Positions 3,134 through 59,506 of a stretch of DNA of 64,000 bases are shown here, piece after piece. Both the position numbers and the translations under genes were made by a program. Origin of the DNA: a virus (taxonomy: Duplodnaviria > Caudoviricetes); the IMG/VR virus record IMGVR_UViG_3300010163_000019, positions 1 to 64,000 of that record; one strand, given 5' to 3'. The notes under the pieces are model-generated. The model did not search any database and was not told the DNA's origin. It saw only the letters and a list, made by a program, of their open reading frames with translations. Position 1 is the stretch's first letter. Each line of letters begins with the position of its first letter.

Positions 3134-3271
3134 AATGCCAATAAAATAACGATTTTATCTATAGTAAAAGGGTATCATTATGTATGGTATCCTTCATAGT
3201 GTAGATAAATGGCTTGAAAAAGTTGTGGAATCTGATATAATATTGATAACAAGCAAAAAGGAGTATACAAA

Positions 3272-3532
3272 ATGCCGGAAATATCATTGTTTTATGGAAT
3301 AAAAGTCACAATGTATTATGACGATCATAATCCACCGCACTTTCATGCAGAATATAATGGAAATAAAATTATTGTAGATATCATAAAGGGAAAAGTTATT
3401 AAGGGTGGATTTCCTAGCAAGCAATTAAAATTAATTCTTGCATGGACAATAATACATCAAGATGAGCTAATGCAAAATTGGGAATTATCAAAGGATGGAA
3501 AGCCTTTAAATAGAATCAATCCGTTAATTTAG
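3272..3532 (+). CDS. DUF4160-family protein (putative toxin)
   Basis: MPEISLFYGIKVTMYYDDHNPPHFHAEY signature; promoter TTGAAA(3214)/TGATATAAT(3233-3241). Confidence 0.85.
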   Translation: MPEISLFYGIKVTMYYDDHNPPHFHAEYNGNKIIVDIIKGKVIKGGFPSKQLKLILAWTIIHQDELMQNWELSKDGKPLNRINPLI

Positions 3533-3543
3533 GGGGTGTATTT

Positions 3544-3825
3544 ATGGATTATTTTCCAGAAATAGTGCAAGTAATACCACATGAAGATTTTACAGTATCT
3601 GTTTATTTTTCTGATGGAAAAATTGTCTTGTACGACATAAAGCCATTTTTGCACATGGAAGTATTTTCTAAAATAAGTGATATTAATATTTTTATGGAAT
3701 CATGTACTATATTAAATGATACACTTGCATGGGATATTACAGGAGATAGAAACGAAAGCAAATGTATAGATATTGATCCAGATACTTTATATAATTTGCC
3801 TGAATCAGTGGAAAGAATAGCATAA
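3544..3825 (+). CDS. DUF2442-family protein (putative antitoxin)
   Basis: VYFSDG..YD..P and TLAW..IDIDPDTLY motifs; follows DUF4160. Confidence 0.8.
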   Translation: MDYFPEIVQVIPHEDFTVSVYFSDGKIVLYDIKPFLHMEVFSKISDINIFMESCTILNDTLAWDITGDRNESKCIDIDPDTLYNLPESVERIA

Positions 3826-3837
3826 GGAGGCGATACT

Positions 3838-4047
3838 ATTACTATACAGCAAAGAGTAAAGGCTGCTTGTGACATTGCTGGAATGAGTTTAACAGAGTTA
3901 GGCGCAAAGATGGGAATGTCACAACAAAATTTTTCAAAACGTTTAAAAGTTGGAAAATTTACACAAGAAGAACTGGAAGAAATGGGAAAATACTTAGGAT
4001 GCGAATATATTTCAATATTTCAATTTCCAGATGGAAAAAGAGTTTAA
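3838..4047 (+). CDS. XRE-family HTH regulator with ATT start (not in ORF track)
   Basis: AGGAGG-7 nt-ATT; (M)TIQQRVKAACDIAGMSLTELGAKMGMSQQNFSKRLKVGKFTQEELEEMGKYLGC. Confidence 0.8.
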   Translation: MTIQQRVKAACDIAGMSLTELGAKMGMSQQNFSKRLKVGKFTQEELEEMGKYLGCEYISIFQFPDGKRV

Positions 4048-4080
4048 AGCATTATTCATCAATTTGAATAGTGCTTTTTT
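4046..4080 (+). terminator. intrinsic terminator
   Basis: aaagcattattca/tgaatagtgcttt stem followed by T tract. Confidence 0.75.
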
Positions 4081-4093
4081 ATTACATACAATA

Positions 4094-4157
4094 ACAACTA
4101 AAAAGTTATAAAAAACAATTAAAAAGTATTGACACAACTAAAAAGTTGTGATAGTAT
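4094..4157 (+). promoter_or_regulatory. promoter overlapped by three palindromic operators
   Basis: TTGACA(4129)-17-TAGTAT(4152); ACAACT-AAAA-AGTTRT at 4094 and 4134, degenerate copy at 4115. Confidence 0.75.
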
Positions 4158-4199
4158 AGTATCAACAAAGAAAACAACACAAACAAACGGAGGTAAGAA

Positions 4200-4469
4200 A
4201 TGAGTAGAAAAGAATTAGGAAATGCGGTAAAAGCAATTCTTGCAACTGTATTAGAAAAATATTGTAGTGGATGCGACACAGAAACGGAAGTGAGAGACCT
4301 TGTAAAATTATTGAATGCCGCAGAAGACATGGCGACGTTTTACGGGTTAAAAGAAATTAATTTTGTAGAATATCAAGCAGTATTAATAAATTCGATGCTT
4401 GTTGATGATAACAAGGCATATCAAATTTTAAAGGAAGGTGGTGAATATAAACTTGTAATAATTTGTTAA
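4200..4469 (+). CDS. hypothetical protein
   Basis: RBS GGAGGT, 89 aa. Confidence 0.8.
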   Translation: MSRKELGNAVKAILATVLEKYCSGCDTETEVRDLVKLLNAAEDMATFYGLKEINFVEYQAVLINSMLVDDNKAYQILKEGGEYKLVIIC

Positions 4470-4478
4470 TCAACAACC

Positions 4479-4530
4479 GCCCAGCGTGGACGCAGGCAAC
4501 ATACACAAGGTTCAATTCCTTGTTTGGGCA
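4479..4530 (+). ncRNA. tRNA-like minihelix (acceptor stem plus T-arm)
   Basis: gcccag/tttgggc stem abutting CAAGG-TTCAATT-CCTTG; no D or anticodon arm. Confidence 0.5.
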
Positions 4531-4911
4531 TTATCCGACTTAAAAATAGAGCAAGTCGCTAACATAGAAAAAGTTATATGTAGAAATCCGCAAAGCGTAA
4601 AACTAGAAAAGGTTTAGATAACCAGAGAGTAAATCACTTTTCTATAATGAAGGGTTGCGTAAGTTCCCGCCGCTTCCGGCATCGTGTAGAAATATAAGAT
4701 GGTGTATGGTGTGTGTAGTCACTCATTAGAGGATGGCAGTATTGCCGATAGTAGCACGGTGCACAAAAACGGTTTTGTTATAACGTGCCTATGATGCGTT
4801 GCAAGTCGCATAGGAAGAAAACGGAGCATAACAGATATCAATAAAAAAGAATATTTATTGTACAGGTAAATTCATTCAATAAATATTATGTAGTTTAAGG
4901 AGGAGACTTGA

Positions 4912-5073
4912 ATGTACGAATTAGGATATTACACAGAAGATGCAGAGATGGTGAAGCTTGGAACAGCTAAAACAAGAGAGGAGGCAAAACAAGTATATAA
5001 TACTTTGCATGAGCGTTACAAGTGTACGATATGGATTTTTAAGATAGAACACATTAATCCTAAAGATTTATAA
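4912..5073 (+). CDS. small hypothetical protein, 53 aa
   Basis: RBS AGGAGGAG; MYELGYYTEDAEMVKLG. Confidence 0.7.
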   Translation: MYELGYYTEDAEMVKLGTAKTREEAKQVYNTLHERYKCTIWIFKIEHINPKDL

Positions 5074-5123
5074 ATCAAAAATAACAACTGAATAGAGCAT
5101 ATGAATGAAAGGGGATTTAAAAC

Positions 5124-5234
5124 ATGTTTTGGATAACCTCGGAAAAGCAGCTAAAAGAGTTAAGATTGTGTTACGACGTAGAGATCACAAAGGTATTTGA
5201 AGATCGCGCTCTTGTAAAAATTGTTGTAGCGTAA
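5124..5234 (+). CDS. small hypothetical protein, 36 aa
   Basis: RBS AAGGGG; MFWITSEKQLKEL. Confidence 0.5.
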   Translation: MFWITSEKQLKELRLCYDVEITKVFEDRALVKIVVA

Positions 5235-5339
5235 AAAATTGGATACAAATTTAAAGTTAGTACATAGGGGATTATGAACGCTGCATAGTCCCTTTTATAG
5301 TAGCTTTAAATTGGATTAAAGAAAGGAAAGGTAAAATTT

Positions 5340-5831: not shown

Positions 5832-5843
5832 GAAAGTGAGGTA

Positions 5844-7475: not shown

Positions 7476-7847
7476 ATGAGTACATATATGCTTTATGGAA
7501 CAAAAATGATTGAAAATGATACTACATTAAAAGATTTTGCATCTTGCATCTATAATAATATTCCAATGGAAATAGAGACAGATGATCCAGAAGAAAGAAA
7601 AGATTATATTTTGGAAATGGCAGAAGAAATTTTAAAGGACGATATCAGTCGTACAGATATTGATTATGAAGAACTTTTATATAAATATAGAGAGGAATTA
7701 GGGGATCTGTTTTATAAAATGTGGAATAGAGATTGTGCAATTCCTACTATAGAATTCTTTGGAGAGGGTGCAAAACAGTTTTTTAATGATATTGTTTATT
7801 ATTTTATTGCTGTACATTATGAAGAGTTTGCAGAAGGAAAAATATAA
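7476..7847 (+). CDS. hypothetical protein
   Basis: RBS GGGAG; stop lies inside junction site 7844. Confidence 0.8.
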   Translation: MSTYMLYGTKMIENDTTLKDFASCIYNNIPMEIETDDPEERKDYILEMAEEILKDDISRTDIDYEELLYKYREELGDLFYKMWNRDCAIPTIEFFGEGAKQFFNDIVYYFIAVHYEEFAEGKI

Positions 7848-8721: not shown

Positions 8722-8945
8722 GTACAAACAAATATATTAGAGAGGCAGCAAAACGAAATCATTGGATTAAATATTATTCTATTATGCGTCCTGTGTCTAT
8801 TGGAACACACCCTAAAGGGATAGAAGATTTTATAAATTATGACATTAGAATAGAAATAAATGGGCGTATGGTGTGGGCTGAGTTGTATTACAGTAGAGAA
8901 TTAACACAAAAAGAACTGGAAGATTTTGAAATGATTAGAGGGTGA
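8718..8945 (+). CDS. small protein resembling DarA C-terminal-like domain
   Basis: YYSIMRPVSIGTHPK..WAELYY..LT..EL..FE pattern. Confidence 0.5.
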   Translation: MSTNKYIREAAKRNHWIKYYSIMRPVSIGTHPKGIEDFINYDIRIEINGRMVWAELYYSRELTQKELEDFEMIRG

Positions 8946-8949
8946 GAAA

Positions 8950-9162
8950 ATGGAAAATATTACAGTAGAACAAAAAGAAAGAATCGAAAAGACTTTAGAT
9001 CGTGCGATTGAGCAGGGGAAAATCGAAAATAAATCGGATGCGATTATAAAGGTAAATAAACAGAAAAATGTATGGTTGTCATGGAGAAATAAATATAGAA
9101 GTTTTCGATTTACAATTTTTGAAGATGGTACAATACATAGTAGATTTTTGGGAACAGAATAA
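8950..9162 (+). CDS. hypothetical protein
   Basis: RBS, 70 aa. Confidence 0.7.
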   Translation: MENITVEQKERIEKTLDRAIEQGKIENKSDAIIKVNKQKNVWLSWRNKYRSFRFTIFEDGTIHSRFLGTE

Positions 9163-9198
9163 GACAATAAAAAAATCGTTTGATCGAGAGGGTATATC

Positions 9199-9564
9199 AT
9201 GGGAAATAAAATCAAAAAAGATAGTATTTTTGTTGTAGCGGAAACATTGACAGATAATAGTACATTTAAAGTTGGTATGATAATCGGAAATTATAAAGAC
9301 GATGTTAACAACAGATGGATCACAACGGATTCAAACGGGAAGAAGTGGCAAAATCTCATATGTCATTTAAGAAACGAAAATTATTTCAGAATTATCAATC
9401 AATACTCTATGTCAGACATTATATATTATCTGCAAAGTAAAAATGAGAATTATTTAACTGTTATGGGGGAAATGCTTACAGATGCAGTTAAAACTACATT
9501 TAGGGAAACAAGAGTAATTTGTGTTGATGATATATACAAGTATATAACAGAAAATTTGATTTAA
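9199..9564 (+). CDS. hypothetical protein
   Basis: RBS GAGGGT, 121 aa. Confidence 0.75.
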   Translation: MGNKIKKDSIFVVAETLTDNSTFKVGMIIGNYKDDVNNRWITTDSNGKKWQNLICHLRNENYFRIINQYSMSDIIYYLQSKNENYLTVMGEMLTDAVKTTFRETRVICVDDIYKYITENLI

Positions 9565-9661
9565 AGGCGTTTATGACTGGTCAGAAGGCATTAGCGGAAA
9601 TATTCGTTAGTGCCTTTTATAGTGGCTATAAACCATAAAATTTTAATCAGGAGGAAAAATC

Positions 9662-10411
9662 ATGAAGAATTGGACTATTACAGAAATTGAAAATATTACA
9701 GAGGATTGTGTAAAGGAAATGGCTGTTGATACCATGAAGATTAAAGGACATAATATATATTTTGTGGAGTTTGAGGGCGGTTTTGGTTTTAGTTGTTTAG
9801 TTTTCAAAAATAATCATCATATTCACTATGCTAATGATTATCAGCTGCATCATGAAACAGTAAAAACAAAAGAAGAATTGAAACAAATGTATATTAAAAC
9901 TATGAATAATATTCTTTTTACAGAAGAGGAAATTGCGAAGCCATTAAAGGATTATGACGATTATGGAAGACGGAGTTATTTCTTACATAATTATTATGGA
10001 ATGCAGATTGATTATATTTCCATCTTTCAAATATTCAATAGAGAAGAAGAAAGAAAGGCATTTAAGAGCCAGACGGAAAATATGACATACAATCCCGTTG
10101 GATTTTGTTATATGAATGATATGGATTTCGTAAGACATCACATTGAACTTTTGGAAACATTAGAAAGGGTAAAAGTAGAAGGTTCTACAAATTATGAGTA
10201 TCTCAAAAAGGCGTTTTTGTATGAAATGCATAATCATGAGTATGAAATAAATTGGCAAGCTGATTATGATGTATTGTCTGTTTTTGGAAATATTCAGTAT
10301 TATCATGAAGATTTAAATGCATATTTTGAGGAATTAAAATTTAATGATACACAGAGAAGGGCATATATGGATGCAAGAAGTCAGTATTATACAGAAAATA
10401 ATTGTGAATAG
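9662..10411 (+). CDS. hypothetical protein, 249 aa
   Basis: RBS AGGAGG. Confidence 0.85.
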   Translation: MKNWTITEIENITEDCVKEMAVDTMKIKGHNIYFVEFEGGFGFSCLVFKNNHHIHYANDYQLHHETVKTKEELKQMYIKTMNNILFTEEEIAKPLKDYDDYGRRSYFLHNYYGMQIDYISIFQIFNREEERKAFKSQTENMTYNPVGFCYMNDMDFVRHHIELLETLERVKVEGSTNYEYLKKAFLYEMHNHEYEINWQADYDVLSVFGNIQYYHEDLNAYFEELKFNDTQRRAYMDARSQYYTENNCE

Positions 10412-11477: not shown

Positions 11478-11557
11478 GAACTATATAATGACAGAAAGAT
11501 TGATATGATTAAAAATAGTGGATAATACAATGGATTTATGGAAGGAGTTATTTAAAA

Positions 11558-12556: not shown

Positions 12557-12593
12557 ATAAAAACGCAATTTGATCAGGAGCAGAGGAAATATT

Positions 12594-12710
12594 ATACCAA
12601 CATATAAATTATTATATACTTGCTCAAAAACAGGAATTAAAGTATATACAAATGGAATTTGTAAGAAAATTGTATATCCGAATAGAAAAATAAAATATAT
12701 GAAACACTGA
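12594..12710 (+). CDS. small hypothetical protein with ATA start, 38 aa
   Basis: RBS GAGG; (M)PTYKLLYTCSKTGIKVYTNG. Confidence 0.4.
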   Translation: MPTYKLLYTCSKTGIKVYTNGICKKIVYPNRKIKYMKH

Positions 12711-12808
12711 AAATCAGGATTTCTTTGCCATATTTTTAGATAAAGAAGTTAGTCAAAAAGAGAAGTAAGTATTGGAAACAATATTTATTTCAAAGGAGGG
12801 TTAACTTT

Positions 12809-13372: not shown

Positions 13373-13416
13373 AATCCCACGACATCAGAATTTCATCCAG
13401 AGAAGGAGAATGTTTA

Positions 13417-16333: not shown

Positions 16334-16464
16334 TGAATTATTACTTAGAAAATTTAAGTAATAATGTTTCATGGAAGTTGAAATTAAAATTTGATTTGTT
16401 AAACCACAGGAAAATAATCTTGTGGCTTTTGTATTGGAGAAATGATATAATGGAGGAAATAATA

Positions 16465-18444: not shown

Positions 18445-19467
18445 ATGCAGCAAGCATTAGTATTCGTAAATAATTCAGATAGTGATAATACAGAAAGAAA
18501 AATATGCGTATATCAAGGAGTAACTTATTTTATCAATACTGAGGACAACACAGGAAAAAATTATATTGAAGTTAGAGGAACAAAGAAATATCTTGATAAA
18601 AATGGAAAGGTTTCTAATAAGCAGCCAAATACACGAAATGTAAGGGACTGCATAAATTCATATGAGGATATGCATAAAATACATGATTACTTAATACAAC
18701 GGAAAAAGTGGAATATATATTTATTGTTTATATTAAATTATAATTTAAGCAGACGAATTGGAGACCTTTTGAAAGCAAAATGGTCAGATTTTTTTGATGA
18801 AGACTGGAAAATTAAAAAGTCATGGGAACTGATAGAGGAAAAAACACATAAGAAAAATGAGATAAAGATTAATAAGGCAGTAAGATATGCATTTAAAACT
18901 TATTTTGAAAAGGAAACTGCCTTTGAGAAAACAGATAAAAACTATTATGAACCAATATTTAAACAGCTTTATGGAACCCATAAAGGCAAGGTTCTTTCCC
19001 AGGAAAGGTATAGACAGATTTTAATAAAAATAGGAGATGAACTAGGACTTGAGAAAAAAGTACGTTCTCATGGTTTTAGGCGGGGAGCATTTACAAATAT
19101 GATTGAGTCGCATCCAAATGATCCAAAAGCGAAAATTACAGTGATGAATATATCAAAACATGGAAGTGAATCAACGCTGAGTCATTATATAGGAGAAGAA
19201 GATAAGGAAAAGGAACGATATCTTGATGATTTAGGTGCTGATTTTGAAAAGTATGTTATAAAGGGAGAAGAAGTTCCATTTCATAAAAAAGTACCACAGG
19301 TAGTCTGTGATACCTCAAAACTTATGGAGTGTATGAGAGATGCAGCATCATATTTTATGATTAAAGGGATAGAAATGTCAAATGAGTCAGATCCCAAAGT
19401 TATTTTGCAAGTGGTAAATGAATCTATGAAAAAGTTAGAGGAAATATTAGAGAATATAACAGAGTAA
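18445..19467 (+). CDS. tyrosine recombinase with complete catalytic set
   Basis: SRRIGDLL (R), EEKT (K), SHGFRR (HxxR), SKHGSESTLSHY (H, Y). Confidence 0.9.
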   Translation: MQQALVFVNNSDSDNTERKICVYQGVTYFINTEDNTGKNYIEVRGTKKYLDKNGKVSNKQPNTRNVRDCINSYEDMHKIHDYLIQRKKWNIYLLFILNYNLSRRIGDLLKAKWSDFFDEDWKIKKSWELIEEKTHKKNEIKINKAVRYAFKTYFEKETAFEKTDKNYYEPIFKQLYGTHKGKVLSQERYRQILIKIGDELGLEKKVRSHGFRRGAFTNMIESHPNDPKAKITVMNISKHGSESTLSHYIGEEDKEKERYLDDLGADFEKYVIKGEEVPFHKKVPQVVCDTSKLMECMRDAASYFMIKGIEMSNESDPKVILQVVNESMKKLEEILENITE

Positions 19468-20700: not shown

Positions 20701-20746
20701 ATATGGGAAATGAAATCCGGTTTTCATGTGGAAAAGGTGATAAACA

Positions 20747-22632: not shown

Positions 22633-22953
22633 ATGAATGTTCAGTTTTATGATGATCTAATGAGCACAGAAGGACTTATGAGTATTAACACAATGGCAAA
22701 AGAACTTGGAATCGGGGAGTATAAGCTGTTTGCTTTTCTTAGAAAGAAAAAAGTATTTTTCTATGATAAGGATATGGTCAATGTGCCTTATGAGCGATTT
22801 CGGAAAGAAGGCACATTTGCTGTTAAGGAAACACTATGTTATGATGGAAATTTTCGTAGTGTTACATATGGAACGAAAATGGGACTTGATTATGTAAGAA
22901 AGTTGCTAAGAAAGAGTGGGTATTATGATAATCCTATATCAGATATAAATTAA
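22633..22953 (+). CDS. phage antirepressor KilAC-like domain protein
   Basis: FYDDL..SI..MAKELGIG..KLFAFLR..PY..T..G..Y+.KLL. Confidence 0.75.
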   Translation: MNVQFYDDLMSTEGLMSINTMAKELGIGEYKLFAFLRKKKVFFYDKDMVNVPYERFRKEGTFAVKETLCYDGNFRSVTYGTKMGLDYVRKLLRKSGYYDNPISDIN

Positions 22954-26508: not shown

Positions 26509-26509
26509 A

Positions 26510-28398: not shown

Positions 28399-30486
28399 TT
28401 GCATATGGGTAAGTACGTTGATTACTATTGTGGTGATAATAATAAGGAATTGAAGAAATTAGTTAATCCTATATTAATGAATCATTTTGGGTGGCTTCCA
28501 AGTCAATATTATGATGATTTTTATTCCATTTTGGCACAAGTTGTATGGGATTGTGAAAAAAACTTTAATGAACAAAAAGTGAAAACTAATAAATTTAAGA
28601 GTTATTTATTGTCATGCATAAGTAATAAGATCAAAAGCCAGCTTACCCATATGCATAGAGATAAAAGATGTTTAAAAGATGATGAAGGGAATCCTGTTTA
28701 TACAGTTTCTTTAGATTCTCCTGTTGGAGATGATGAAAAGATTACAATTGGAGATACCATTCAGTCAGATTTTGATATTGATGAAGAATTACAAGGTGTT
28801 TTAAAAGATGAAAAATTAGAAAAATTTCTAAATAATTTACCCAGAATACAGCGACAGATTGCAGAAATGATTATGGAAGGCTTTTCTATTGATGAAATAA
28901 AGCAAAGATTGAAATTAAGTGATAAGAAGTATCATGATAATTTTAATGCCTTAAAATTATTTAAAAATATTAGCATTTTATGTAATGATCAAAACCAAAT
29001 AAAAATTATGGAGGATGAGGAAATGAGTATGACTACACAAACACAGACTGCTGAGAATTGTAAAACTGATAAGATTAGTATTGCTTCTATTATTAAAAAA
29101 ATAGACAAGCATACAATTCGTTTTGATCACCCGTTACAGAGGGAATCTGATCAATGGTCTCCGTCTATGAAAGGAAATCTGGTTTCTGATATCCTCCAGG
29201 GAAATAAATTACAACCGCTTATTTTTGCAGAACAGATTATTAATGGTGTTCCGATTATATGGGATCTTGATGGCAAACAGCGTTGTACAAATGTCTATTT
29301 ATATTCTAAGAATGGATATAAAGTATCTAAGAATATTAGACGTTGGATGATTAAATACCAGACAACGGAGAAAGATGAGAACGGGAATGATGTTTTAGAT
29401 GAGAATGGATTTCCGATTGCAGTAAATGCAGAATTTGATATTCGTGGTAAGAAGTTTTCGGATTTGCCGGAAGAATTAAGAGATAGATTTTTAGATTATA
29501 GTTTTAATTATGATCAGTATCTAAATTGTTCTGAAGAAGATATAGGGTATCATATTGAAAGATATAATGATGGAAAAACAATGACAAAACCACAAAAAGG
29601 CATTACTAAGATTGGAACGGAATTTGCTGAAATGGTTAAATCAATTTCCAATATGTCATTTTTTAAAAATATTGGTGGGTATAAAGTTTCAGAATTTAAG
29701 AATGGAGCAATAGATAGAGTAGTAATTGAATCAGTAATGGCTACTAATTATTTTGATGACTGGAAAAAAGATATGGAGAAGCAATGTGAATATCTTAAAG
29801 AGAATGCTACATCAGAAATATTTGACAATTTTGAAGATATGGTAGAGAGATTAGAAAAGGTTATTACAGATGATGTGGCAGATATGTTTGATTCAAAGGA
29901 TAGTTTTTTGTATTTTGGTTTATTTTCTAAATTTATTAATATTGGATTAAATGATGAAAAGTTTATTGAATTCATGGCTGAGTTTACTCGGTCATTACAT
30001 AGTAAAGAGATTGATGGCATCACATATGATGAACTATGTGTAAATCCAAAAACTGGTAAGGCATATGGAACAAAAGATAAGTATATTGTAATTCCTAAAA
30101 TGGAAAGACTTGAAAATCTTATGTTTGATTTCCTTAATATAAGCAGAAGTAAAATAAAAAATGGTGTAGATAAAAATATACTTATCGCTAACTATGTTGA
30201 TATGTCAATCGAAGAAATAAGTCAAGATATTGATTTTTATGAGGATACTTTGGACGAATTAGAAAACAAAACAATTAAAGATGGTTCAAAATTATTGGAA
30301 CCAGAAAATAGAGTATCTTTATTGGCAATGATTGTTTACTCATTTAAAAATGATGTAGATCTAGATGATTGGATGGAAGAATATGCAAAGAGCAATAATA
30401 TGTATTTCCCAGATCAGAGAAAGAATTTCTTATATATGAAGAAAGATTTTATTAATTACATAGAAACAAAAGAGAAAGCAGGTTAG
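28399..30486 (+). CDS. sigma70-like factor fused to a DUF262 domain
   Basis: N-terminal region-2-like FKSYL..I.NKI and region-4 LP..QR.I..M..GFS..EI..L; then HPLQR..W..LDGKQR; internal RBS plus ATG at 29023. Confidence 0.75.
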   Translation: MHMGKYVDYYCGDNNKELKKLVNPILMNHFGWLPSQYYDDFYSILAQVVWDCEKNFNEQKVKTNKFKSYLLSCISNKIKSQLTHMHRDKRCLKDDEGNPVYTVSLDSPVGDDEKITIGDTIQSDFDIDEELQGVLKDEKLEKFLNNLPRIQRQIAEMIMEGFSIDEIKQRLKLSDKKYHDNFNALKLFKNISILCNDQNQIKIMEDEEMSMTTQTQTAENCKTDKISIASIIKKIDKHTIRFDHPLQRESDQWSPSMKGNLVSDILQGNKLQPLIFAEQIINGVPIIWDLDGKQRCTNVYLYSKNGYKVSKNIRRWMIKYQTTEKDENGNDVLDENGFPIAVNAEFDIRGKKFSDLPEELRDRFLDYSFNYDQYLNCSEEDIGYHIERYNDGKTMTKPQKGITKIGTEFAEMVKSISNMSFFKNIGGYKVSEFKNGAIDRVVIESVMATNYFDDWKKDMEKQCEYLKENATSEIFDNFEDMVERLEKVITDDVADMFDSKDSFLYFGLFSKFINIGLNDEKFIEFMAEFTRSLHSKEIDGITYDELCVNPKTGKAYGTKDKYIVIPKMERLENLMFDFLNISRSKIKNGVDKNILIANYVDMSIEEISQDIDFYEDTLDELENKTIKDGSKLLEPENRVSLLAMIVYSFKNDVDLDDWMEEYAKSNNMYFPDQRKNFLYMKKDFINYIETKEKAG

Positions 30487-31801: not shown

Positions 31802-32020
31802 GTGAATATCAAAACATATAAAATTAAACAATATAATTCAACATACAAACATATTCTTGTGGTTGATGGAGAGCCAGTTTGTGCAGCACAAGGCGGAAAA
31901 CAGATGAGTAAATGTATCCAATATCTTAGTGGATATAATGTGAATATTAGTGATGGCAGAATTAAAAAGGTATTGAACAAGTATCGACACGCTTTAGAAA
32001 ATGAAGAGTGTAAATCATAA
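31802..32020 (+). CDS. hypothetical protein
   Basis: RBS GAGGTG; stop inside site 32017. Confidence 0.7.
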   Translation: MNIKTYKIKQYNSTYKHILVVDGEPVCAAQGGKQMSKCIQYLSGYNVNISDGRIKKVLNKYRHALENEECKS

Positions 32021-32069
32021 AAGCCGCATTTCATTGGGATATTTTATTTATTTTAGAGAGGATAAAACA

Positions 32070-34407: not shown

Positions 34408-34499
34408 AAGGCAATGAAAACTACGTATGATTGATGAAATAGATATATTATAGTTTAGATTCGATATAACCACAATATATAGAATGAAGGGAGAAGAGT

Positions 34500-35077: not shown

Positions 35078-35362
35078 ATGAGTTATATAATGTTGCAATT
35101 TAAGGAAGTCGCAAAAAATATTTTAGATTTGGAAGAAAAGAAAAAGCTGATGCGTTCCAATTTTGAGAAATCCACAAGTGAATTATCTGAGTGTTTTCAT
35201 TGGATTATGGAGGCAGAATTAGATGGTAGAAAGCATACATGTCTTACTATTTATACATGTCCAGAGTTATATGCAAAAGAATTAGAAGGTATGGGATTTG
35301 TTGTAGAAGAACAAAGAAATGTTTTTGATACTCTTTGTGGATATGATATTAAATGGCAATGA
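35078..35362 (+). CDS. hypothetical protein
   Basis: Ends CAA TGA inside site 35359. Confidence 0.7.
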   Translation: MSYIMLQFKEVAKNILDLEEKKKLMRSNFEKSTSELSECFHWIMEAELDGRKHTCLTIYTCPELYAKELEGMGFVVEEQRNVFDTLCGYDIKWQ

Positions 35363-35415
35363 AACTAACATTTTATTCAGATAAATGAATGATTAAAGAA
35401 AGGAAAAACAATACA

Positions 35416-38124: not shown

Positions 38125-38268
38125 ATCTTTGAATTTTAAGAAAACATATCAGATTACAAATAAACAGATGAGAACATAAACTTAGTCCTTGCAAATGGTC
38201 CATATGTTATTGGAAATATATGAAAAATAATAAAACACGAGTTTTATGTGAAATGGAGGTAAAACCGT

Positions 38269-38727: not shown

Positions 38728-38778
38728 TGGGTAGCAATAAAATTTCCGTTTTATTTATTGAGAGAAGGAGACAAATGT

Positions 38779-39165
38779 ATGATTAATTTAAATGATTTAA
38801 CTGTTGAGGATTTAAAAGATATTGAAGAATTACAGAAATTTAGAAAAGAGTCTCAAAGATTATATAATATTGTTGTTAATAATCAGAAAGTGCCATTGAT
38901 TCTTGATGATAAGAATAGATATAAATTATGGGATGATACAAACAATGCTGAGTATCTTGCACTCATTGATGGTGAATGGATATGGCAAGCAAGATATTTA
39001 CATCAAAAGTATGATGTTCCAATTAATGTAGAAAAAATATATAAGACTATGGTAAATGCCTATGAAATGGAAAAGGATATAACGAAGGGGGGGTTTGCTA
39101 ATGGCAATAAGGAAGCAATAGGCTATTTTACGGCTTATGTAAACAAATTGATAACCAAGCAATGA
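38779..39165 (+). CDS. hypothetical protein between sites 38737 and 39162
   Basis: Ends CAA TGA inside the site. Confidence 0.8.
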   Translation: MINLNDLTVEDLKDIEELQKFRKESQRLYNIVVNNQKVPLILDDKNRYKLWDDTNNAEYLALIDGEWIWQARYLHQKYDVPINVEKIYKTMVNAYEMEKDITKGGFANGNKEAIGYFTAYVNKLITKQ

Positions 39166-39201
39166 ATCGAAGGTTTTATATAATAAATTTGGAAGTTTGG
39201 T

Positions 39202-40044: not shown

Positions 40045-40509
40045 ATGGGATATAAATATATTGATGACAAAATTGAACCATATTTAGATATCTTAATTGA
40101 TTGTGTGAAATTAAATGGTGAAGCAATAGAGGAACAAATTAAGAGGATTACAAGTGATACAGATACAATGGGAGAGTGTTTGGAAGATAATTTTCTTGCC
40201 TTCAAATTACATTCCAAAAAGGTTAGAGATGAGTATGAAAAAGCAGTTACAGAAGAACTACAGAAATCAGAAAAGGTATGGGAGAAATGTGATAATTTAA
40301 TACACGAGTCTAAACCTAAAATTGAAAGAGTAAAAGATGATATGCAAGAATTATTAGACATGATTTCTGAAGTGGATAAATCATTGGATTCTATGCCAGT
40401 TTATAAGGCAGAGAAATTTATTGAGCTTATTGAAAAGTTTAATAATATGCCATCAGTGGAGAAGAAATTATTTACAAAATTATTAGAAGTAAGTAATGAT
40501 ATGGTTTAA
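40045..40509 (+). CDS. coiled-coil hypothetical protein
   Basis: RBS AAGGAG after site 40004. Confidence 0.75.
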   Translation: MGYKYIDDKIEPYLDILIDCVKLNGEAIEEQIKRITSDTDTMGECLEDNFLAFKLHSKKVRDEYEKAVTEELQKSEKVWEKCDNLIHESKPKIERVKDDMQELLDMISEVDKSLDSMPVYKAEKFIELIEKFNNMPSVEKKLFTKLLEVSNDMV

Positions 40510-40544
40510 AATCTGCGATTCCTGTGGTGAAAGGTGAAAAGTAT

Positions 40545-43305: not shown

Positions 43306-43722
43306 ATGAAAGAGATTATAGACTTTAAGATAGAAATGAGGGATTTTATATTTTCGATGGGTGATGTTGGAAAAGCTTTAAAATTGATTTCTGAAAGAAT
43401 ATTGAATACAAATTATGATGATTATTGTGAAAATGAAACATGTAAACCATATGGATGTTTAGAGTGTAAGAACTTTGGACGACAGGAGGGATATAATCAA
43501 CAAAGAGGAAGTTTTATTTTTCAACACTTTAAATGTAAAAAGCAAACAGATAGAGATATGTATAATCATGACAATACATACAACATATTTGATATAGAAT
43601 CTGATTGTAGTCCATACTTTCATTATGATAATGCAAAAGGAGAGTGCCCATATTTTGAGTGTAGTGAAAATGATTTGGTTTATATGTCCGAAAAAGAGAA
43701 AAGGAAGTGTATAGGGCGATAA
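43306..43722 (+). CDS. hypothetical Cys-rich protein
   Basis: Stop inside site 43719. Confidence 0.75.
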   Translation: MKEIIDFKIEMRDFIFSMGDVGKALKLISERILNTNYDDYCENETCKPYGCLECKNFGRQEGYNQQRGSFIFQHFKCKKQTDRDMYNHDNTYNIFDIESDCSPYFHYDNAKGECPYFECSENDLVYMSEKEKRKCIGR

Positions 43723-43756
43723 ATAATCTGTTTTGTTGTTAAAATTAAAAATAATA

Positions 43757-48022: not shown

Positions 48023-48810
48023 AAGAAGAATTGATACAAGATAATGGAATCTACAATTATGATGCATCTGATTTTATTCATGCACTATATGAGGATTATG
48101 GAGATGAAAGTATAGACATGTTTCTTTGTGATTTTCCCTATACATTTAAAGGAAAGAACAGAGTGACAGCAAATAAATGGGATTTACCAATAGATGATAA
48201 AGAGTTTTTTGAAATTGCTATGAAAATGCTAACACCAGAGGGGTGTATAGCATTAACAGCAGGGCAACCATTTACAAGTTATTTAGTAATGAATCATCTT
48301 GACTGTTTTAAATATGAATGGATTTGGGAGAAAGATAATGGTAGCAATTTTTCAAGTGTGAATCATCAACCATTTAAGGTTCACGAATCTGTATTAATTT
48401 TTGGGAAAGCTCCAACTACATATAATAAAGCAGAAAGATATATGAAGTATAATCCGCAATTTACAGATGGAAAGCCTTATAAGATGAAGAGAAGTGGAAT
48501 GACTGAGAATTTGGCTACTTCATCTGGTTATGAAAGAACAAATGGAGAATATGAAGGTAAACGTTATCCAAGAAGTGTTGTCAAATTTAACTTGGAAAAG
48601 GGACTTCATCCTACACAAAAACCTACAAAATTATTTGAGTATCTCATTAAAACTTATACTAACGAAGGCGGGCGGGTTGTTGATGTGTGTTGTGGTAGTG
48701 GAACAACTGCTAAAGCGGCACAGAACACAGGAAGAGTTTATATTGTAAATGATAATAATTTGGATTATGTGAGAATCTCTGAAAAACGATTAGGTGTTAT
48801 TAATGGTTGA
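48019..48810 (+). CDS. N4C/N6A DNA methyltransferase
   Basis: CDFPY, HPTQKP, VDVCCGSGTT; stop inside site 48807. Confidence 0.9.
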   Translation: MKEELIQDNGIYNYDASDFIHALYEDYGDESIDMFLCDFPYTFKGKNRVTANKWDLPIDDKEFFEIAMKMLTPEGCIALTAGQPFTSYLVMNHLDCFKYEWIWEKDNGSNFSSVNHQPFKVHESVLIFGKAPTTYNKAERYMKYNPQFTDGKPYKMKRSGMTENLATSSGYERTNGEYEGKRYPRSVVKFNLEKGLHPTQKPTKLFEYLIKTYTNEGGRVVDVCCGSGTTAKAAQNTGRVYIVNDNNLDYVRISEKRLGVING

Positions 48811-48832
48811 ATCATCGGTTTTATTTAAATAT

Positions 48833-48862
48833 AAAAATGATGCCCCATCCTGCCAGGGCATT
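48833..48862 (-). terminator. intrinsic terminator of the minus-strand cassette
   Basis: Minus strand atgccct/ggggcat stem then cattttt. Confidence 0.65.
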
Positions 48863-48867
48863 GTCTG

Positions 48868-49014
48868 TTAAAAATTGCTTTGGTATAAGAACAGTAAAAC
48901 TATTCTTATTATTAAGTAGATAATGTTTAGTAATACACATATTGCCTTCAACTCCATATAAATTTTGTTGATTCTGTTTATGGTACTCTTCACAATTAAT
49001 TTAATTTCACGCAT
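48868..49014 (-). CDS. 48-aa peptide with hydrophobic C-terminal helix (not in ORF track)
   Basis: AGGAGG RBS; MREIKLIVKSTINRINKIYMELKAICVLLNIIYLIIRIVLLFLYQSNF. Confidence 0.7.
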   Translation of the reverse strand: MREIKLIVKSTINRINKIYMELKAICVLLNIIYLIIRIVLLFLYQSNF

Positions 49015-49247
49015 ATGCACATACCTCCTCAGATTTTATTCTGGGATGGCACATATAAGAAGGTATTCCGAAATCTCAACTTGCGACTTTTCTTCTCTTA
49101 TTGAGCAGGATATGTAGACAAATTCAATAAGATACATTCCCTAAGCTGGTTTTTTGGTAAAACATTTTTATGTACAACCAATACGCAAGATACATAAATA
49201 GTTCAATGCGTGAGTCAGATTACGGATTGCCTACAACCTTAGTTAAT

Positions 49248-49276
49248 ATTATATGCATAAATTTGATTAGTGTAAA
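49248..49276 (-). promoter_or_regulatory. sigma70 promoter for the minus-strand cassette
   Basis: TTTACA(49276-49271)-17-TATAAT(49253-49248). Confidence 0.7.
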
Positions 49277-49398
49277 GAGGTTTTATAAAATTTTGCTTTT
49301 ATTGGGTGACGTGAAAGAGGTGGTTACAGATTAAAAAGGAAGAAAATTTCTTAGAAGAAAACTTCAATATAAGTTTTACTTGGTATCAAAAAATAGAA

Positions 49399-54815: not shown

Positions 54816-54897
54816 AAATAAGTCAATAAAAGGTTAATTTTATGGCACGAAAGTAGAAGAAATGTAATGTGATAGTTGCAAATATCACAAATAAAGT

Positions 54898-54945
54898 TAG
54901 GAGGAAACGAGATTTGACTGGTCGATAAATGTACATTTGCTCCTA
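54898..54945 (+). promoter_or_regulatory. double-palindrome leader element, copy 4
   Basis: TAGGAG..GACTGGTC..AAATGTACATTT..CTCCTA. Confidence 0.7.
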
Positions 54946-54953
54946 AAAGGTAA

Positions 54954-55967
54954 TTGACAGAAAATAAGCATACAACAGAAGATTTAGTGTCAATGCAAAG
55001 TAGAGATTTTTACGATAAGATTCAAACTTCTGTCGCAAAAATCTTAGAAGCATTAAGTAGATACAATAAGAAATGCTATGTTTCTTTTTCTGGAGGCAAG
55101 GATAGTACGGTTTTAGCAGATTTAGTTGCACAATGTTGTCAACTATTTAATTGCAAATTAACACTATGGTATTCTCACACTGGACTTGAATATCCAGAAG
55201 TTACACAACACGTTAAAGATTTTGCTAAGTGGTTGAAAGAGAAATATGAAATAGAAGTTAATTTGATAATTGATTATCCAAAAGATAAAAACGGAAAGAG
55301 AATTACATTCAAAGATGTAGTTACAAAATACGGATATCCGTTGATTAGCAAAGAAGTATCAAGAGATGTAGCCATTGCAAAAAATAAACCAGATGGTAAA
55401 ACGGCACAAAAATTTGTAAGAGGATCTGACTATCATAAAAAATATGGAGATACATGGTTACTTGAACGATGGGCATATCTTATAAACGCACCATTTAGAA
55501 TTTCTAATCAATGCTGCAATATCATGAAGAAAACACCAGCTCACAAATTCAACAAAGAGAGTGAAATGATACCTATTATCGGTACAATGGCTTGTGAATC
55601 TGTTTTGAGAAAGAAAGAATGGTTACGTTCAGGTTGCAATGCTTTTGACAATAAAAATCCAAGCAGTAAGCCGTTGTCATTTTGGACAGAACAAGATATT
55701 TTAAGATATCTTAAAGAGTTTAACATACCTTATCCATCTGTATATGGAGAGATATTACAAGACAGTAAAGGTAAATATTATACTTCTGGGTGTGATAGAA
55801 CAGGCTGTGTATTTTGTGGATATGGCTGTCATTTAAAAAATGACCATAGATTTGAGAGATTAAAACTGAGTCATCCTAAATTGTTTGAATATTGTATGAA
55901 ATCTGTTGAAGATGGTGGTCTTGGTATGAAGGAAGTTTTAGAGTATATAGGTGTAAAAATAGAATAA
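54954..55967 (+). CDS. PAPS-reductase-family (PP-loop) protein
   Basis: SFSGGKDS, TGLEYPE, CC..MKK, IGTMA.ES, RTGCVFC. Confidence 0.88.
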   Translation: MTENKHTTEDLVSMQSRDFYDKIQTSVAKILEALSRYNKKCYVSFSGGKDSTVLADLVAQCCQLFNCKLTLWYSHTGLEYPEVTQHVKDFAKWLKEKYEIEVNLIIDYPKDKNGKRITFKDVVTKYGYPLISKEVSRDVAIAKNKPDGKTAQKFVRGSDYHKKYGDTWLLERWAYLINAPFRISNQCCNIMKKTPAHKFNKESEMIPIIGTMACESVLRKKEWLRSGCNAFDNKNPSSKPLSFWTEQDILRYLKEFNIPYPSVYGEILQDSKGKYYTSGCDRTGCVFCGYGCHLKNDHRFERLKLSHPKLFEYCMKSVEDGGLGMKEVLEYIGVKIE

Positions 55968-55998
55968 ATTAGTATTGAAATCTTGGTTTTAAGGGGGA

Positions 55999-56440: not shown

Positions 56441-56484
56441 AAATAATTTTGAGTTTTAATTTGTGAACTATCAGTTGATTAAAA

Positions 56485-56676
56485 GTGGAGGTGATTAAAG
56501 TATTTGAAGTAAATAGAAAAGATAGTGTGGAATATGATAATAATTCAGGAATAAGTCTCTCACCTGTAAAAGTCTATAATGTGAGAGATGATAAAAATGG
56601 ATACCCACAATTCTTAATTTATGAAAATGGAGAATGGAAGTATATGAGTGCAAAATATTTTGTACCTAATAATTAA
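56485..56676 (+). CDS. small hypothetical protein
   Basis: VYNVRDDKNGYPQFLIY..W.Y.SAK. Confidence 0.65.
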   Translation: MEVIKVFEVNRKDSVEYDNNSGISLSPVKVYNVRDDKNGYPQFLIYENGEWKYMSAKYFVPNN

Positions 56677-56702
56677 AAGATTGGAGATGACAAGTTATTA
56701 GT

Positions 56703-57443: not shown

Positions 57444-57584
57444 AAATAATGGTTTTGGTTTATGAAACAGACCTCATAATTAAATGAATGAAATTTAAGG
57501 CACAGTGTAGTCAGGTATTCTTTAGGGAGAAGAAATCCACAAGTTCATTCAGCCAAAACTTGATAAAAAGGAGAATTAATACAT

Positions 57585-57797
57585 ATGGCATTATCAAAGA
57601 AACAAGAGAAACAGTTAAACAATGAAATTAAAAAGACTTTAGAAGAAGTTAGATTTCAAGGATTAAAAGCTGGTGCTGCTGGTATTCTTGGAGCAGTTTT
57701 AGAAATGTGTAACAGTGATAAGACTGATGCAGAGATTGTTAAGGATATTAAGGATTTCTGTGAGAAGTCGTTGAATTTGGATGGGATGAAAAACTAA
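57585..57797 (+). CDS. hypothetical protein
   Basis: RBS AAGGAG. Confidence 0.75.
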   Translation: MALSKKQEKQLNNEIKKTLEEVRFQGLKAGAAGILGAVLEMCNSDKTDAEIVKDIKDFCEKSLNLDGMKN

Positions 57798-57819
57798 TAG
57801 AAAAGGAGAATGAAGAAGT

Positions 57820-58071
57820 ATGCCAAACGAATTGAGAGACACAATTGAAATGATGAACAGTGAGGATTATAAGGAGCGATTCAAAGCAGAATATTATCAG
57901 GTAGTAATTCGCTATCAGAAATTGAAATCTATGCTTGATAAGTGGGATAATGATCAGCTTGAATTTACACCTACTTGCCCACGAAGTACCTATAATATGC
58001 AGATTACAGCTATGACAGATTATATTGCAGTTCTGGAGGCGAGAGCAGTTATGGAAGGTGTGGAACTGTAG
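57820..58071 (+). CDS. phage hypothetical protein
   Basis: M.SEDYKERFKAEY.Q..PTCP..LEARA. Confidence 0.75.
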   Translation: MPNELRDTIEMMNSEDYKERFKAEYYQVVIRYQKLKSMLDKWDNDQLEFTPTCPRSTYNMQITAMTDYIAVLEARAVMEGVEL

Positions 58072-58072
58072 A

Positions 58073-58300
58073 ATGGATAAAAGTGCATTGGATCAGGCAA
58101 ATTCGATAATAAGTGCGATGAAAGTATTAGACGATTTAAACATTGTTATGAACGTACCATATCCTCAATTTTCGTGCAGTGATACGGAAGTTAATTCAGC
58201 TTGTTTTGATAAGATTACATTAAACAATCTAAAAATAATTATAAAAGATTTTATAGAAAAGAGAAAATTAGAATTACAGAAGGAGTTTGAATCATTATAA
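58073..58300 (+). CDS. hypothetical protein
   Basis: ATG directly after previous stop. Confidence 0.65.
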   Translation: MDKSALDQANSIISAMKVLDDLNIVMNVPYPQFSCSDTEVNSACFDKITLNNLKIIIKDFIEKRKLELQKEFESL

Positions 58301-58327
58301 ATATTTATGTGTTGAAAGGAAAACATA

Positions 58328-58726
58328 ATGGTAGAATTAAAACTTAATTTTGATGAACTTACTGAAATGTCTTTAGAAGATGCAAAGAAAATTATTGAAG
58401 AATTTGATAATGAAAGTTTTCTTGAAGATATTAGAGAAGAAGTAAAAGGAACTAATTATGGTGTAAAGGTACTTGATGAAGGTGATTGGATAGACGAAGG
58501 AAAATATCAGTATAGAACAGATATTGGAGTTTTATGCGAGTTTGATGATAAATGGAACATAGCAAAGATGTTTGATATTGCAGTTACTTCTGAAATTACA
58601 CGCAATGGATCTTATTTCAGTGATTACAACTATGATTATGATGATTTGGTGGTAAATAAGATTATTAAGAAAGTTATTCCAAAGCAGATTATTCCTGAGA
58701 GAACAGTGGTTACTTTAGAGGGATGA
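58328..58726 (+). CDS. hypothetical protein
   Basis: DEGDWIDEGKYQY..RNGSYFSDY. Confidence 0.75.
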   Translation: MVELKLNFDELTEMSLEDAKKIIEEFDNESFLEDIREEVKGTNYGVKVLDEGDWIDEGKYQYRTDIGVLCEFDDKWNIAKMFDIAVTSEITRNGSYFSDYNYDYDDLVVNKIIKKVIPKQIIPERTVVTLEG

Positions 58727-58738
58727 ATGTGCGATTTT

Positions 58739-59152
58739 ATGGCATATAGAAGGGGTGATATTATAGAAGAAAATATAAATAATGCATTTAAATCTATGAG
58801 GATGATAACAGAGAAAATACCTACTGTTGCTATTTGTGGTATGGGAAAATCAATAAATAATTTAGCAAAAAAAATGATAAAAGCTGAAGAAGAATATATA
58901 AAAATGGAACAGATGAAGGTTTTAGGTTTGAATGAGGAAATATTGAACTGTAGATCGACTCTAACATTAGAAGAATTGAATAAAATGTTTTGTGAAATTG
59001 ATACAGAAATAATTGATACAGAAAGTATCTCAAATCTTAAAAAGAGAATAAAGTATTGCAAAAACCCTATGGAACGAAAACAGTTAGAAAAAAAATTGAA
59101 TGATTTGTATAAAGAGCAAAAAAGGAATAGAAAAAATGTTAAAAACAAGTGA
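58739..59152 (+). CDS. hypothetical protein
   Basis: KKRIKYCKNPMERKQLEK. Confidence 0.7.
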   Translation: MAYRRGDIIEENINNAFKSMRMITEKIPTVAICGMGKSINNLAKKMIKAEEEYIKMEQMKVLGLNEEILNCRSTLTLEELNKMFCEIDTEIIDTESISNLKKRIKYCKNPMERKQLEKKLNDLYKEQKRNRKNVKNK

Positions 59153-59489
59153 AGTAATCAATTATATAGAAAAAATGTATGATATTAAATTGATGGATTA
59201 TCAGAAAGAATTTGTTAAGCACATTATCCAAGGAGATGTGATTTATACTCCAAGATGTTTTGGAAGAAGCATGATTTATAACGGTTATGCTGATTATTTG
59301 AAAAATGTTATTGGTAAAGAAACCGACTATTCTGTAGATCCAAATGATTTTGATAAGATTTATACATATAGGGATGTACCAATAGGTGCCTTATATCCAA
59401 GTGAGCATATTGAAAGTGCTATGAATAAAAATAAGAAACTGTTTGAAAAAGAATATGAGTGTAAGTATGGACTAAATACGAAGTCTTAA
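59136..59489 (+). CDS. hypothetical protein
   Basis: KLMDYQKEF..PRCFGRS; stop inside site 59486. Confidence 0.7.
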   Translation: MLKTSEVINYIEKMYDIKLMDYQKEFVKHIIQGDVIYTPRCFGRSMIYNGYADYLKNVIGKETDYSVDPNDFDKIYTYRDVPIGALYPSEHIESAMNKNKKLFEKEYECKYGLNTKS

Positions 59490-59506
59490 AATTCTTATTT
59501 CAAAGG

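Follow-up and report, generated by a model that had tools for sequence, protein, structure and literature searches.

What is the role of some 29 short palindromes that stand between the genes of a phage, each with inverted arms of similar sequence enclosing six bases that differ in every copy? The question is raised by a 64,000-nucleotide stretch of DNA from a virus of the Caudoviricetes (the window), which forms the first 64 kb of the 73,371-bp IMG/VR record IMGVR_UViG_3300010163_000019; this source contig, here called G0, is 44% complete according to CheckV. An earlier note on the window had described about 29 such 18-bp sites at gene junctions and proposed that they either delimit mobile, integron-like gene cassettes or bind a phage regulator. 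Comparison with related genomes indicates that the sites are real, that they are the mosaic joints of SPbeta-like genomes, and that their private six-base centres are conserved addresses. The junction motif with its private, colinear centres is common to SPbeta-like phages and to gut relatives of the window, while kinship of the window with SPbeta at the level of genes is not established.

The motif ATRAAW-N6-TTTYAW has 26 strand matches (at 17 places) where 3.76 are expected, a number reached by none of 100 dinucleotide-preserving shuffles, so that the enrichment claimed in the earlier note is borne out. When the spacing between the arms was scanned from N0 to N14, 16 matches were found at N6 and 0–3 at every other spacing, N5 and N7 included, which the earlier note had regarded as decisive; because the peak stands at N6 alone, composition cannot account for the motif. 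An iterated weight matrix again returned 29 sites, and a two-strand matrix scan with a score of at least 11 returned 35 sites in the 73-kb contig, 33 of them within the window. A looser definition of the site, with one mismatch allowed, was dropped, as it was not N6-specific. Nearly all of the 33 window sites lie on or just past a stop codon. The stop coincides with bases 2–4 of the left arm, as had been noted, in 11 of the 35 sites and in the degenerate copies at 7844, 36499 and 43719, and a further 12 sites begin 0–12 nt past a stop; this register is not special in itself, because any TRA word in three frames would give about one third. The ribosome-binding site (RBS) expected after the right arm was found as well, beginning 4–12 nt past it, with RBS and start codon lying 4–30 nt downstream. 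Two regions said to lack sites do so: the ParB/sigma block at 23.5–31.8 kb has none in the two-strand scan, and the replication block beyond 60.8 kb has weak matches inside genes only, up to a genuine site that lies past the window, at contig position 73254. Matrix matches at 16378, 18116 and 22633, which fall within genes or on a start codon, may be non-functional.

In each joint, two inverted arms of generic sequence, C-N-WTRAAA ... TTTYAW-N-G, enclose a private and asymmetric 6-bp centre. The conserved arms measure only 6–8 bp per side, the right arm being stricter than the left (T13–15 and A17 are invariant), and a weak extra symmetry, C at -1 and G at +20, gives way to background beyond these positions. 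The spacers of G0 are all unlike, with no identical pair, and they keep the composition first ascribed to them: the last base (position 12) is a purine in 31 of 35, and CG occurs in 15 of 35 against about 2.4 expected. The first base (position 7) is a pyrimidine in 24 of 35, and C makes up 23% of spacer bases against 10.8% genome-wide. Among 278 sites there is no palindromic spacer (p = 0.013), and identical spacers do not occur within any one genome. Same-centre pairs, sought inside G0 as traces of cassette insertion, did not exceed chance, the sole case being a degenerate pair in contig G4.

Relatives were collected through an RNA-ligase search, which gave 66 IMG/VR loci, including the closest, L001, and the contigs G4 and G5. 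The 129-kb IMG/VR contig G6 was found with a 531-aa methyltransferase-like protein, and G10, with 159 kb, is a contig classified as proviral. Scanning IMG/VR for the single site cacgag gave 112 stretches, most of them by estimate due to chance, and these were used only if neighbouring sites were present. G6 has 51 forward motif matches against 3 in the control. G0 and G6 share 23–24 identical six-base centres (24 where 1.5 are expected by chance), all in the same order; G0 and G10 share 19, and G6 and G10 share 44, of which all 44 are colinear by longest common subsequence, the chance expectation for pairs among these three genomes being 0.8–2. The shared centres keep the same orientation throughout, and reverse-complement matches stay at the chance level. 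Only 12–26% of the DNA is alignable among the three genomes, and the polymerase is 26% identical despite the shared centres. Around partner sites of G0 and G6 the 40-nt flanks on both sides show random identity (about 0.4), and within the arms positions 1, 3, 16 and 18 are scrambled, with identities of 0.67, 0.38, 0.50 and 0.58. Where orthology is defined by the flanks, the centre is usually identical, with one clear point change, cagaga to cagagc.

The slots between shared centres hold unrelated contents in most cases when G0 is compared with G6, and contents that are 70–96% identical in a few. The slot from cacgag to tttccg measures 507, 325 and 476 bp in G0, G6 and G10 with unrelated gene content, while a block 90% identical between G0 and G6 begins exactly at site 14198 and a further G0–G6 block (54823–55996) spans site 54826 to the next site. 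The site-like word at 22633 may be kept as coding sequence, because its upstream flank is also homologous to G6. Site 59486 (ttctta) opens the slot of the replication module, which ends at contig position 73254 (taggac); the replication genes in this slot are 20–27% identical between G0 and G6, and those of G0 (60851–64000, in the contig to 73192) are 55–73% identical to those of G4 and G5. The whole replication module seems to have been swapped, G6 sharing the flanking centres and G4 and G5 none. Other clades have sets of their own, with 8 centres shared by G4 and G5, 11 by G11 and G12, and none across clades. In L001 (6 sites in 6 kb), G4 and G5 the motif is likewise N6-specific, and some contigs of 150–200 kb carry a more G/C-containing version, ATGAAA-N6-TTTCAT. 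A separate case is the complete genome G001 (L002 contig, 148,651 bp, terminal repeats), whose RNA ligase is 83% identical and which has only about eight WTGAAA-N6-TTTCAW sites, barely over the control; site density varies widely among related phages.

The position at which homology breaks was studied by classing partner sites according to homology of the 50 nt upstream and downstream and counting the differences in the left and right arms. In the gut clades, sites with upstream homology only had 1 left-arm and 13 right-arm differences (n = 12), sites with downstream homology only had 6 and 3 (n = 8), and sites with both flanks homologous had 0 and 1 (n = 12); in the Bacillus SPbeta-likes the corresponding counts were 0 and 11 (n = 15), 3 and 0 (n = 14), and 0 and 0 (n = 21). 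Each arm tracks its own flank, and homology therefore breaks between the arms, in the invariant core. G4 and G5 are mosaics of one another, with blocks 97–99% identical, and five of the block boundaries coincide exactly with a site edge; an insertion of about 1 kb in G4 lies between two sites that both have the centre (t/g)aacta, and G5 has one hybrid site in its place. Across all 66 loci of the RNA-ligase search, breakpoints are ten times as frequent in sites as at random positions. Two further rearrangements were recorded in these genomes. The genes at 57585 and 57820 (window 57448–58084) stand in reversed order in G6 (L082) at 83142–83765, with 80–96% protein identity and zero junction sites at the three borders. 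At 8866–10358 G4 (L068) carries a 1.5-kb insertion relative to G5, exactly between RBS and start codon, with G+C-rich ends and without a junction site; an intron or a homing-endonuclease element is conceivable.

The motif recurs in cultured phages of Bacillus. SPbeta has 38 matches at N6 against 2–6 at N3–N9; among the yop, yoq, yor and yos genes they stand at stop codons and junctions, others lie in the late cluster, and the motif is symmetric alike in plus- and minus-strand gene clusters; SPR has 20 at N6 against 0–3. In regions of SPbeta, SPR, SPbetaL5, SPbetaL2 and BUCT083, all 10 pairs share 5–12 centres, always colinear, and slot lengths and contents differ between the five phages despite the shared centres. 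The arms are nearly constant from these phages to those of the gut. Of 16 junctions in laboratory phi3T-SPbeta hybrids, 15 lie in ordinary homology, and the one non-homologous junction is near yosA. The anti-defence gene Gad1 is annotated in the compared regions of SPbetaL5 (L235, 27455–28342) and SPbetaL2 (L236, 26911–27804). Literature searches that did not cover the SPbeta genome paper (Lazarevic et al., 1999) found no published account of the motif.

The motif, its spacing, its position at junctions, the colinear private centres, the break between the arms and the recurrence in cultured phages are observed; from these we infer enzyme-catalysed site-specific recombination, and which enzyme performs it. 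We regard it as moderately probable, on comparative evidence, that the sites are heterospecific crossover sites with tyrosine-recombinase core geometry, at which gene blocks are exchanged in register. If two related phages share a cell, copies with the same centre would pair, strand exchange would occur inside the invariant core (AAA, centre, TTT), and the gene block between two joints would be traded in register with gene order intact. The joints of one genome should not cross with each other, and their orientation should be fixed, because the centres all differ and none is palindromic. The logic would be that of engineered cassette exchange with heterospecific lox or FRT sites, and the inverted 6–8-bp arms, the 6-bp overlap and the requirement for identical centres would correspond to the chemistry of tyrosine-recombinase core sites. 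The likeness of inverted arms around a 6-bp spacer to this core geometry had been pointed out in the earlier note, and it is reinforced by the strict N6 spacing and the additional C -1/G +20 symmetry. A tolerance of unlike spacers as in Tn916-type integrases, which had been invoked with it, is not supported, since partner sites across genomes have identical spacers, and the idea of mobile cassettes of 1–5 genes survives in part: the sites do bound blocks of 1–5 or more genes that are replaced between relatives, but the sites themselves are immobile.

The most likely enzyme is a phage tyrosine recombinase, in the window the protein encoded at 18445–19467, which lies among the sites. Residues R104, D107, K133/K136, H209, R212, H239 and Y248 are invariant in 17 of its homologues, down to 44% identity, and this invariant catalytic set argues for catalysis over mere binding. 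A PF00589 gene is also present in G6, in the same slot (ttcgca to acttga) as in G0, and every genome examined has 1–3 such genes. A large protein search gave 71 homologues, from gut metagenomes, one of them labelled as a Eubacterium metagenome-assembled genome, while a search of IMG/VR by peptide patterns found no close relatives. The enzyme of SPbeta is perhaps YopP, which adjoins MrpR in SPbeta-like phages and shares phrog_216 and phrog_1 with the 18445 recombinase, MrpR being in phrog_5830; a host recombinase is a possible actor as well.

Several observations weigh against exchange by a dedicated enzyme. The comparison matches what a requirement for identical overlaps would predict, but microhomology-guided exchange without such an enzyme would equally predict crossovers in the 12-bp core, because the core is the only sequence that two diverged genomes share there. 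Statistical support for the break between the arms (combined Fisher p = 1.6e-5; gut clades alone 0.005, Bacillus alone 0.003) comes from pairs that are not independent events. In the low-density relatives, sites hold 2.9% of the breakpoints and 2.6% of the stop codons of open reading frames; because stop codons score alike, breakpoint enrichment alone shows no more than a gene-boundary effect. Some indels between G4 and G5, and the swap of two genes, have no sites. The replication genes of G0 are closest to those of G4 and G5, yet these two contigs share zero spacers with G0. The candidate recombinases are highly diverged, with no blastp match between G0 and G6 and 30% identity between G0 and G5, and the 18445 recombinase gave no significant BLASTP match to YopP or to MrpR; because the arms are near-constant and the recombinases diverged, a conserved host factor or other phage protein fits better. 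The arms, at 6–8 bp, are also short for a recombinase, those of Xer or Cre being 11–13 bp.

Some of these points would be explained if the sites were docking places for a dimeric DNA-binding protein (an operator, a stoperator-like roadblock or the target of a nucleoid protein) and exchange a by-product, general or microhomology-mediated recombination resolving at the last short identities between diverged phages. We consider this reading unlikely, though it is the chief rival. The dyad symmetry with independent half-sites suits it, and the 6-bp gap between half-sites resembles that of the 434 operator or of CRP sites. It is also consistent with the strict placement at junctions just upstream of an RBS, and with the conservation from Bacillus to gut phages of the arms and not of the recombinases. 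Between 32 and 46 kb the window has no intrinsic-terminator-like sites (2.6 expected) and 63 sigma-70-like promoters against 85 in shuffles, which makes some other punctuation plausible there; the space between site and RBS is nevertheless too small for a promoter. A reader of the arms would leave unexplained why private centres agree at six of six bases at 19–44 sites per pair of genomes amid scrambled arms and flanks, and why palindromic centres are absent. SPbeta provides a precedent in MrpR (YopR), a recombinase-fold repressor that binds repeated SPBRE operators (PMC10516654). The ten peaks found for it by chromatin affinity purification sequencing (ChAP-seq) are all SPBRE promoters, and none is reported at the junction motif (PMC10516654). 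SPBRE is another word, derived here as AAATACAAAWAATATGTATA at about ten promoters.

That each cassette bears its own site, is excised as a circle and is reinserted elsewhere by the phage recombinase, as in an integron, is very improbable. The G4 insertion between two same-centre sites does look like the outcome of circle integration, a self-contained gene on the minus strand lies exactly between sites 48807 and 49285, and genes shared with L001 stand there in a different order. Those L001 genes have other neighbours and other centres, however; homologues of gene 39561 occur in 14 other phages without a site; and both sites flanking the minus-strand gene are kept in G6 and G10, where they enclose different content. 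The order of centres is fixed in G0, G6 and G10, as it is in five SPbeta-like phages, an attI-like primary site is absent, and there is no array beside the recombinase. Sites thus do not travel with genes, and relatives keep both the order and the private spacers, which disfavours the integron-like system of the earlier note. An element acting in RNA at the 3' end of cistrons, as an A-U hairpin, a processing or termination signal or a device of translational coupling, is scarcely credible. It would account for the constant location on the coding-strand side, past the stop and ahead of the next RBS, and for the better conservation of the right arm. The stem would have merely 3–5 A-U pairs, though, and R3 and Y16 are independent (6 A-C, 3 G-C and 2–3 A-G pairs, with about 30% of copies A-C or A-G at this pair); because the two positions do not covary, the site is not a conserved RNA stem. 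The SPbeta motif is equally symmetric in both strand clusters, and conserved private centres would go unexplained. Two narrower candidates were ruled out: a hairpin or terminator, the arms lacking covariation, and a promoter, the RBS standing 4–12 nt past the right arm and sigma-70-like promoters being depleted.

The coordinates of the sites and of the candidate recombinase are collected in the table. The window has a G+C content of 31%, and its convincing genes lie on the plus strand, with one minus-strand exception at 48821–49300. Recognised products include DNA methyltransferases, several ParB/Srx-fold proteins and one GmrSD_N (DUF262) protein, the ParB/Srx-fold and DUF262 proteins clustering at 17–31 kb, as well as an RNA ligase, PAPS-reductase-like and radical-SAM proteins. 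The replication block beyond 60.8 kb encodes a DnaB-like helicase, a primase, an exonuclease, a polymerase of 1065 aa and a RecD/Dda-like helicase. A 695-aa protein (28399–30486) has as its sole Pfam match a stretch like region 4 of extracytoplasmic-function (ECF) sigma factors at residues 119–177, and G6 has a 34% identical counterpart in the same site-free slot. Intergenic promoter-like sites are few in the G0 contig (3214, 19642, 23949 and 60734). The minus-strand gene is a moron fitted exactly between sites 48807 and 49285. Directly after site 49285 it has a TTTACA-17-TATAAT promoter, which is followed by a leader of about 225 nt and a GGAGG RBS; its product is a 48-aa peptide, basic and then hydrophobic, like a type I toxin, and ahead of site 48807 stands a hairpin rich in G+C, with a T run. 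The SPbeta gene yosA is a comparable small minus-strand gene, and a putative type I toxin according to the supplement of the Dragos preprint.

Table. Junction sites and candidate recombinase of the window (window coordinates; scores are those of the matrix scan; G6 and G10 coordinates are those of sites with the identical spacer in these contigs)
Feature	Positions	Strand	Context	Sites with the identical spacer
Junction site ATAAAA taacga TTTTAT	3141..3158	.	perfect motif, 7 nt past stop	at no G6 or G10 site
Degenerate site ATAAAT cgtgta ATTTAA	7844..7861	.	stop = bases 2–4	spacer at G6:8136, G10:72254
Junction site ATAAAA aaatcg TTTGAT	9167..9184	.	score 13.7; 4 nt past stop	
Site ATAATA caatgg ATTTAT	11522..11539	.		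spacer also at G6:10981, G10:75460
Site AGGAAA tgataa TTTTAA	11856..11873	.	score 11.5; 19 nt past stop	
Junction site ATAAAA acgcaa TTTGAT	12557..12574	.	begins directly behind TAG stop	
Weak site TGAAAA tcagga TTTCTT	12708..12725	.		spacer in order with G6:14271, G10:77221
Site ACGACA tcagaa TTTCAT	13379..13396	.	6 nt past stop; then RBS	
Junction site TTAAAA ctcgta TTTTAA	13989..14006	.	stop = bases 2–4	spacer at G6:15241, G10:77779, arms differ
Junction site ATAAAA ttcgca TTTCAA	14198..14215	.	stop = bases 2–4	G6:15893, G10:78374
Junction site TTAAAA tctaag TTTTAA	17222..17239	.	5 nt past stop	
Tyrosine recombinase, 340 aa, candidate enzyme	18445..19467	+	PF00589, phrog_216, phrog_1	
Site ATAAAT acttga TTTCAA	20351..20368	.		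common to G6:28154, G10:86238
Junction site ATGAAA tccggt TTTCAT	20710..20727	.	perfect dyad	G6:31045, G10:88078
Junction site ATAGAA tgttgc TTTTAA	21834..21851	.		common to G6:32207, G10:89055
Site-like word ATGAAT gttcag TTTTAT	22633..22650	.	on start codon	G6:36787
Junction site ATAAAA gccgca TTTCAT	32017..32034	.	stop = bases 2–4; closes site-free ParB/sigma block	G6:44201
Weak site ATGAAA actacg TATGAT	34414..34431	.	6 nt past stop; score 10.8	
Junction site ATGAAA ctaaca TTTTAT	35359..35376	.	stop = bases 2–4	G6:45563
Junction site ATAAAA cacgag TTTTAT	38230..38247	.		common to G6:53542, G10:100092
Junction site ATAAAA tttccg TTTTAT	38737..38754	.		common to G6:53867, G10:100568
Junction site ATGAAT cgaagg TTTTAT	39162..39179	.	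stop = bases 2–4	G6:55143, G10:100893
Junction site ATAAAA gaaaca TTTTAA	39524..39541	.	stop = bases 2–4	G6:55507, G10:101257
Site TAGAAT cccacg TTTCAA	40004..40021	.		common to G6:57104; spacer also at G10:105039
Half-decayed site TTAAAA tctgcg ATTCCT	40506..40523	.	stop = bases 2–4	spacer at G6:58163
Junction site ATAAAT cttgta TTTCAA	41512..41529	.	stop = bases 2–4	
Junction site ATAAAT tcgaga TTTTAA	42846..42863	.	7 nt past RNA ligase stop	G6:64451, G10:108279
Degenerate site ATAAAT aatctg TTTTGT	43719..43736	.	stop = bases 2–4	spacer at G6:71387, G10:112421
Site AGGAAA agccaa TTTCAA	45229..45246	.		common to G6:73317, G10:113495
Junction site TTGAAT catcgg TTTTAT	48807..48824	.	stop = bases 2–4; left border of minus-strand moron	G6:74605, G10:115767
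Junction site ATAAAA ttttgc TTTTAT	49285..49302	.	right border of minus-strand moron	G6:77558, G10:118510
Junction site ACAAAA ccagag TTTCAA	53388..53405	.		common to G6:79199, G10:120599
Junction site ATAAAA ggttaa TTTTAT	54826..54843	.		common to G6:80338, G10:122167
Junction site TTGAAA tcttgg TTTTAA	55975..55992	.		common to G6:81475, G10:122780
Junction site ATGAAT gtgcga TTTTAT	58723..58740	.	stop = bases 2–4	
Junction site TTAAAA ttctta TTTCAA	59486..59503	.	stop = bases 2–4	G6:88471, G10:126639

It may be, although we put the chances at slightly less than even, that SPbeta-like phages, from those of Bacillus to those of Clostridia in the human gut, are naturally equipped with 30–70 heterospecific sites per genome, and that a recombinase exchanges DNA between same-centre sites alone, so that modules are replaced in register, whether they serve accessory functions, anti-defence or even replication. 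Phage mosaicism is well known, but border sequences that direct the exchange have rarely been pinned down, and here they are explicit, short, countable and addressed. Susskind and Botstein are said to have proposed 'linker' sequences for modular phage evolution; the joints, if rightly interpreted, would be their physical realisation and a natural counterpart of cassette exchange between heterospecific lox sites. If an enzyme acts on the joints, they would represent a new way for viruses to trade genes with gene order unbroken, and would provide a candidate role for YopP, a tyrosine recombinase conserved in SPbeta-like phages and so far unexplained. The sites are also present in the SPbeta, phi3T-type and SPR phages of Bacillus subtilis, so that a direct test by standard genetics is possible. 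The centres could also be used as landmarks to align and classify mosaic genomes, and as natural landing pads for engineering.

Several known systems resemble the junction sites in part. The SPBRE system belongs to the same phage group and likewise joins a repeated short intergenic dyad to a protein of tyrosine-recombinase fold. It differs in that MrpR is without catalytic residues, which the 18445 recombinase of the window keeps, and in that the junction motif, another word with 38 copies in SPbeta, is not among the MrpR peaks (PMC10516654). The pdif sites of Acinetobacter plasmids are 28 bp long, with 11-bp XerC/XerD arms, and are related to the host dif; they alternate in orientation (XerC/D, XerD/C), and dif modules turn up in new contexts (PMC6449649). 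As in the phages, many core-type sites with inverted inner arms and a variable 6-bp centre flank small accessory blocks, the same block lies between such sites in different replicons, and the mechanism was deduced mainly by comparative genomics. Unlike pdif sites, those of the phages have 6–8-bp arms, one orientation, a fixed order and private centres kept by relatives. Their arms are presumably also unlike dif of Bacillus subtilis. Integrons share with the joints a tyrosine recombinase, short inverted core sites and one-gene units with a site at the 3' end of the gene. The attC site moves together with its cassette, takes part in recombination as a folded single strand and is inserted at a single attI beside intI, whereas the phage sites are fixed-length double-strand dyads, immobile and fixed in order; they are scattered along 60 kb to either side of the recombinase gene, with no single attI-type point. 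In T4-type phages, Arbiol et al. in 2010 reportedly described promoter-early stem-loops (PeSL) flanking mobile small genes. These, too, are repeated short elements at small-gene junctions of a large phage, for which shuffling between co-infecting phages was proposed; they are promoter and terminator units of tens of bases that act through ordinary homology and have no private address, whereas the phage sites carry neither promoter nor terminator. A parallel in logic is cassette exchange between heterospecific lox or FRT sites, in which the arms are common, the spacers differ, and only sites with the same spacer recombine, so that exchange is in register without deletion or inversion. That system was designed in the laboratory, its arms measuring 13 bp and its spacers 8 bp, while the phages would have 30–70 natural sites per genome, whose dependence on identical spacers is suggested by the conservation of their centres.

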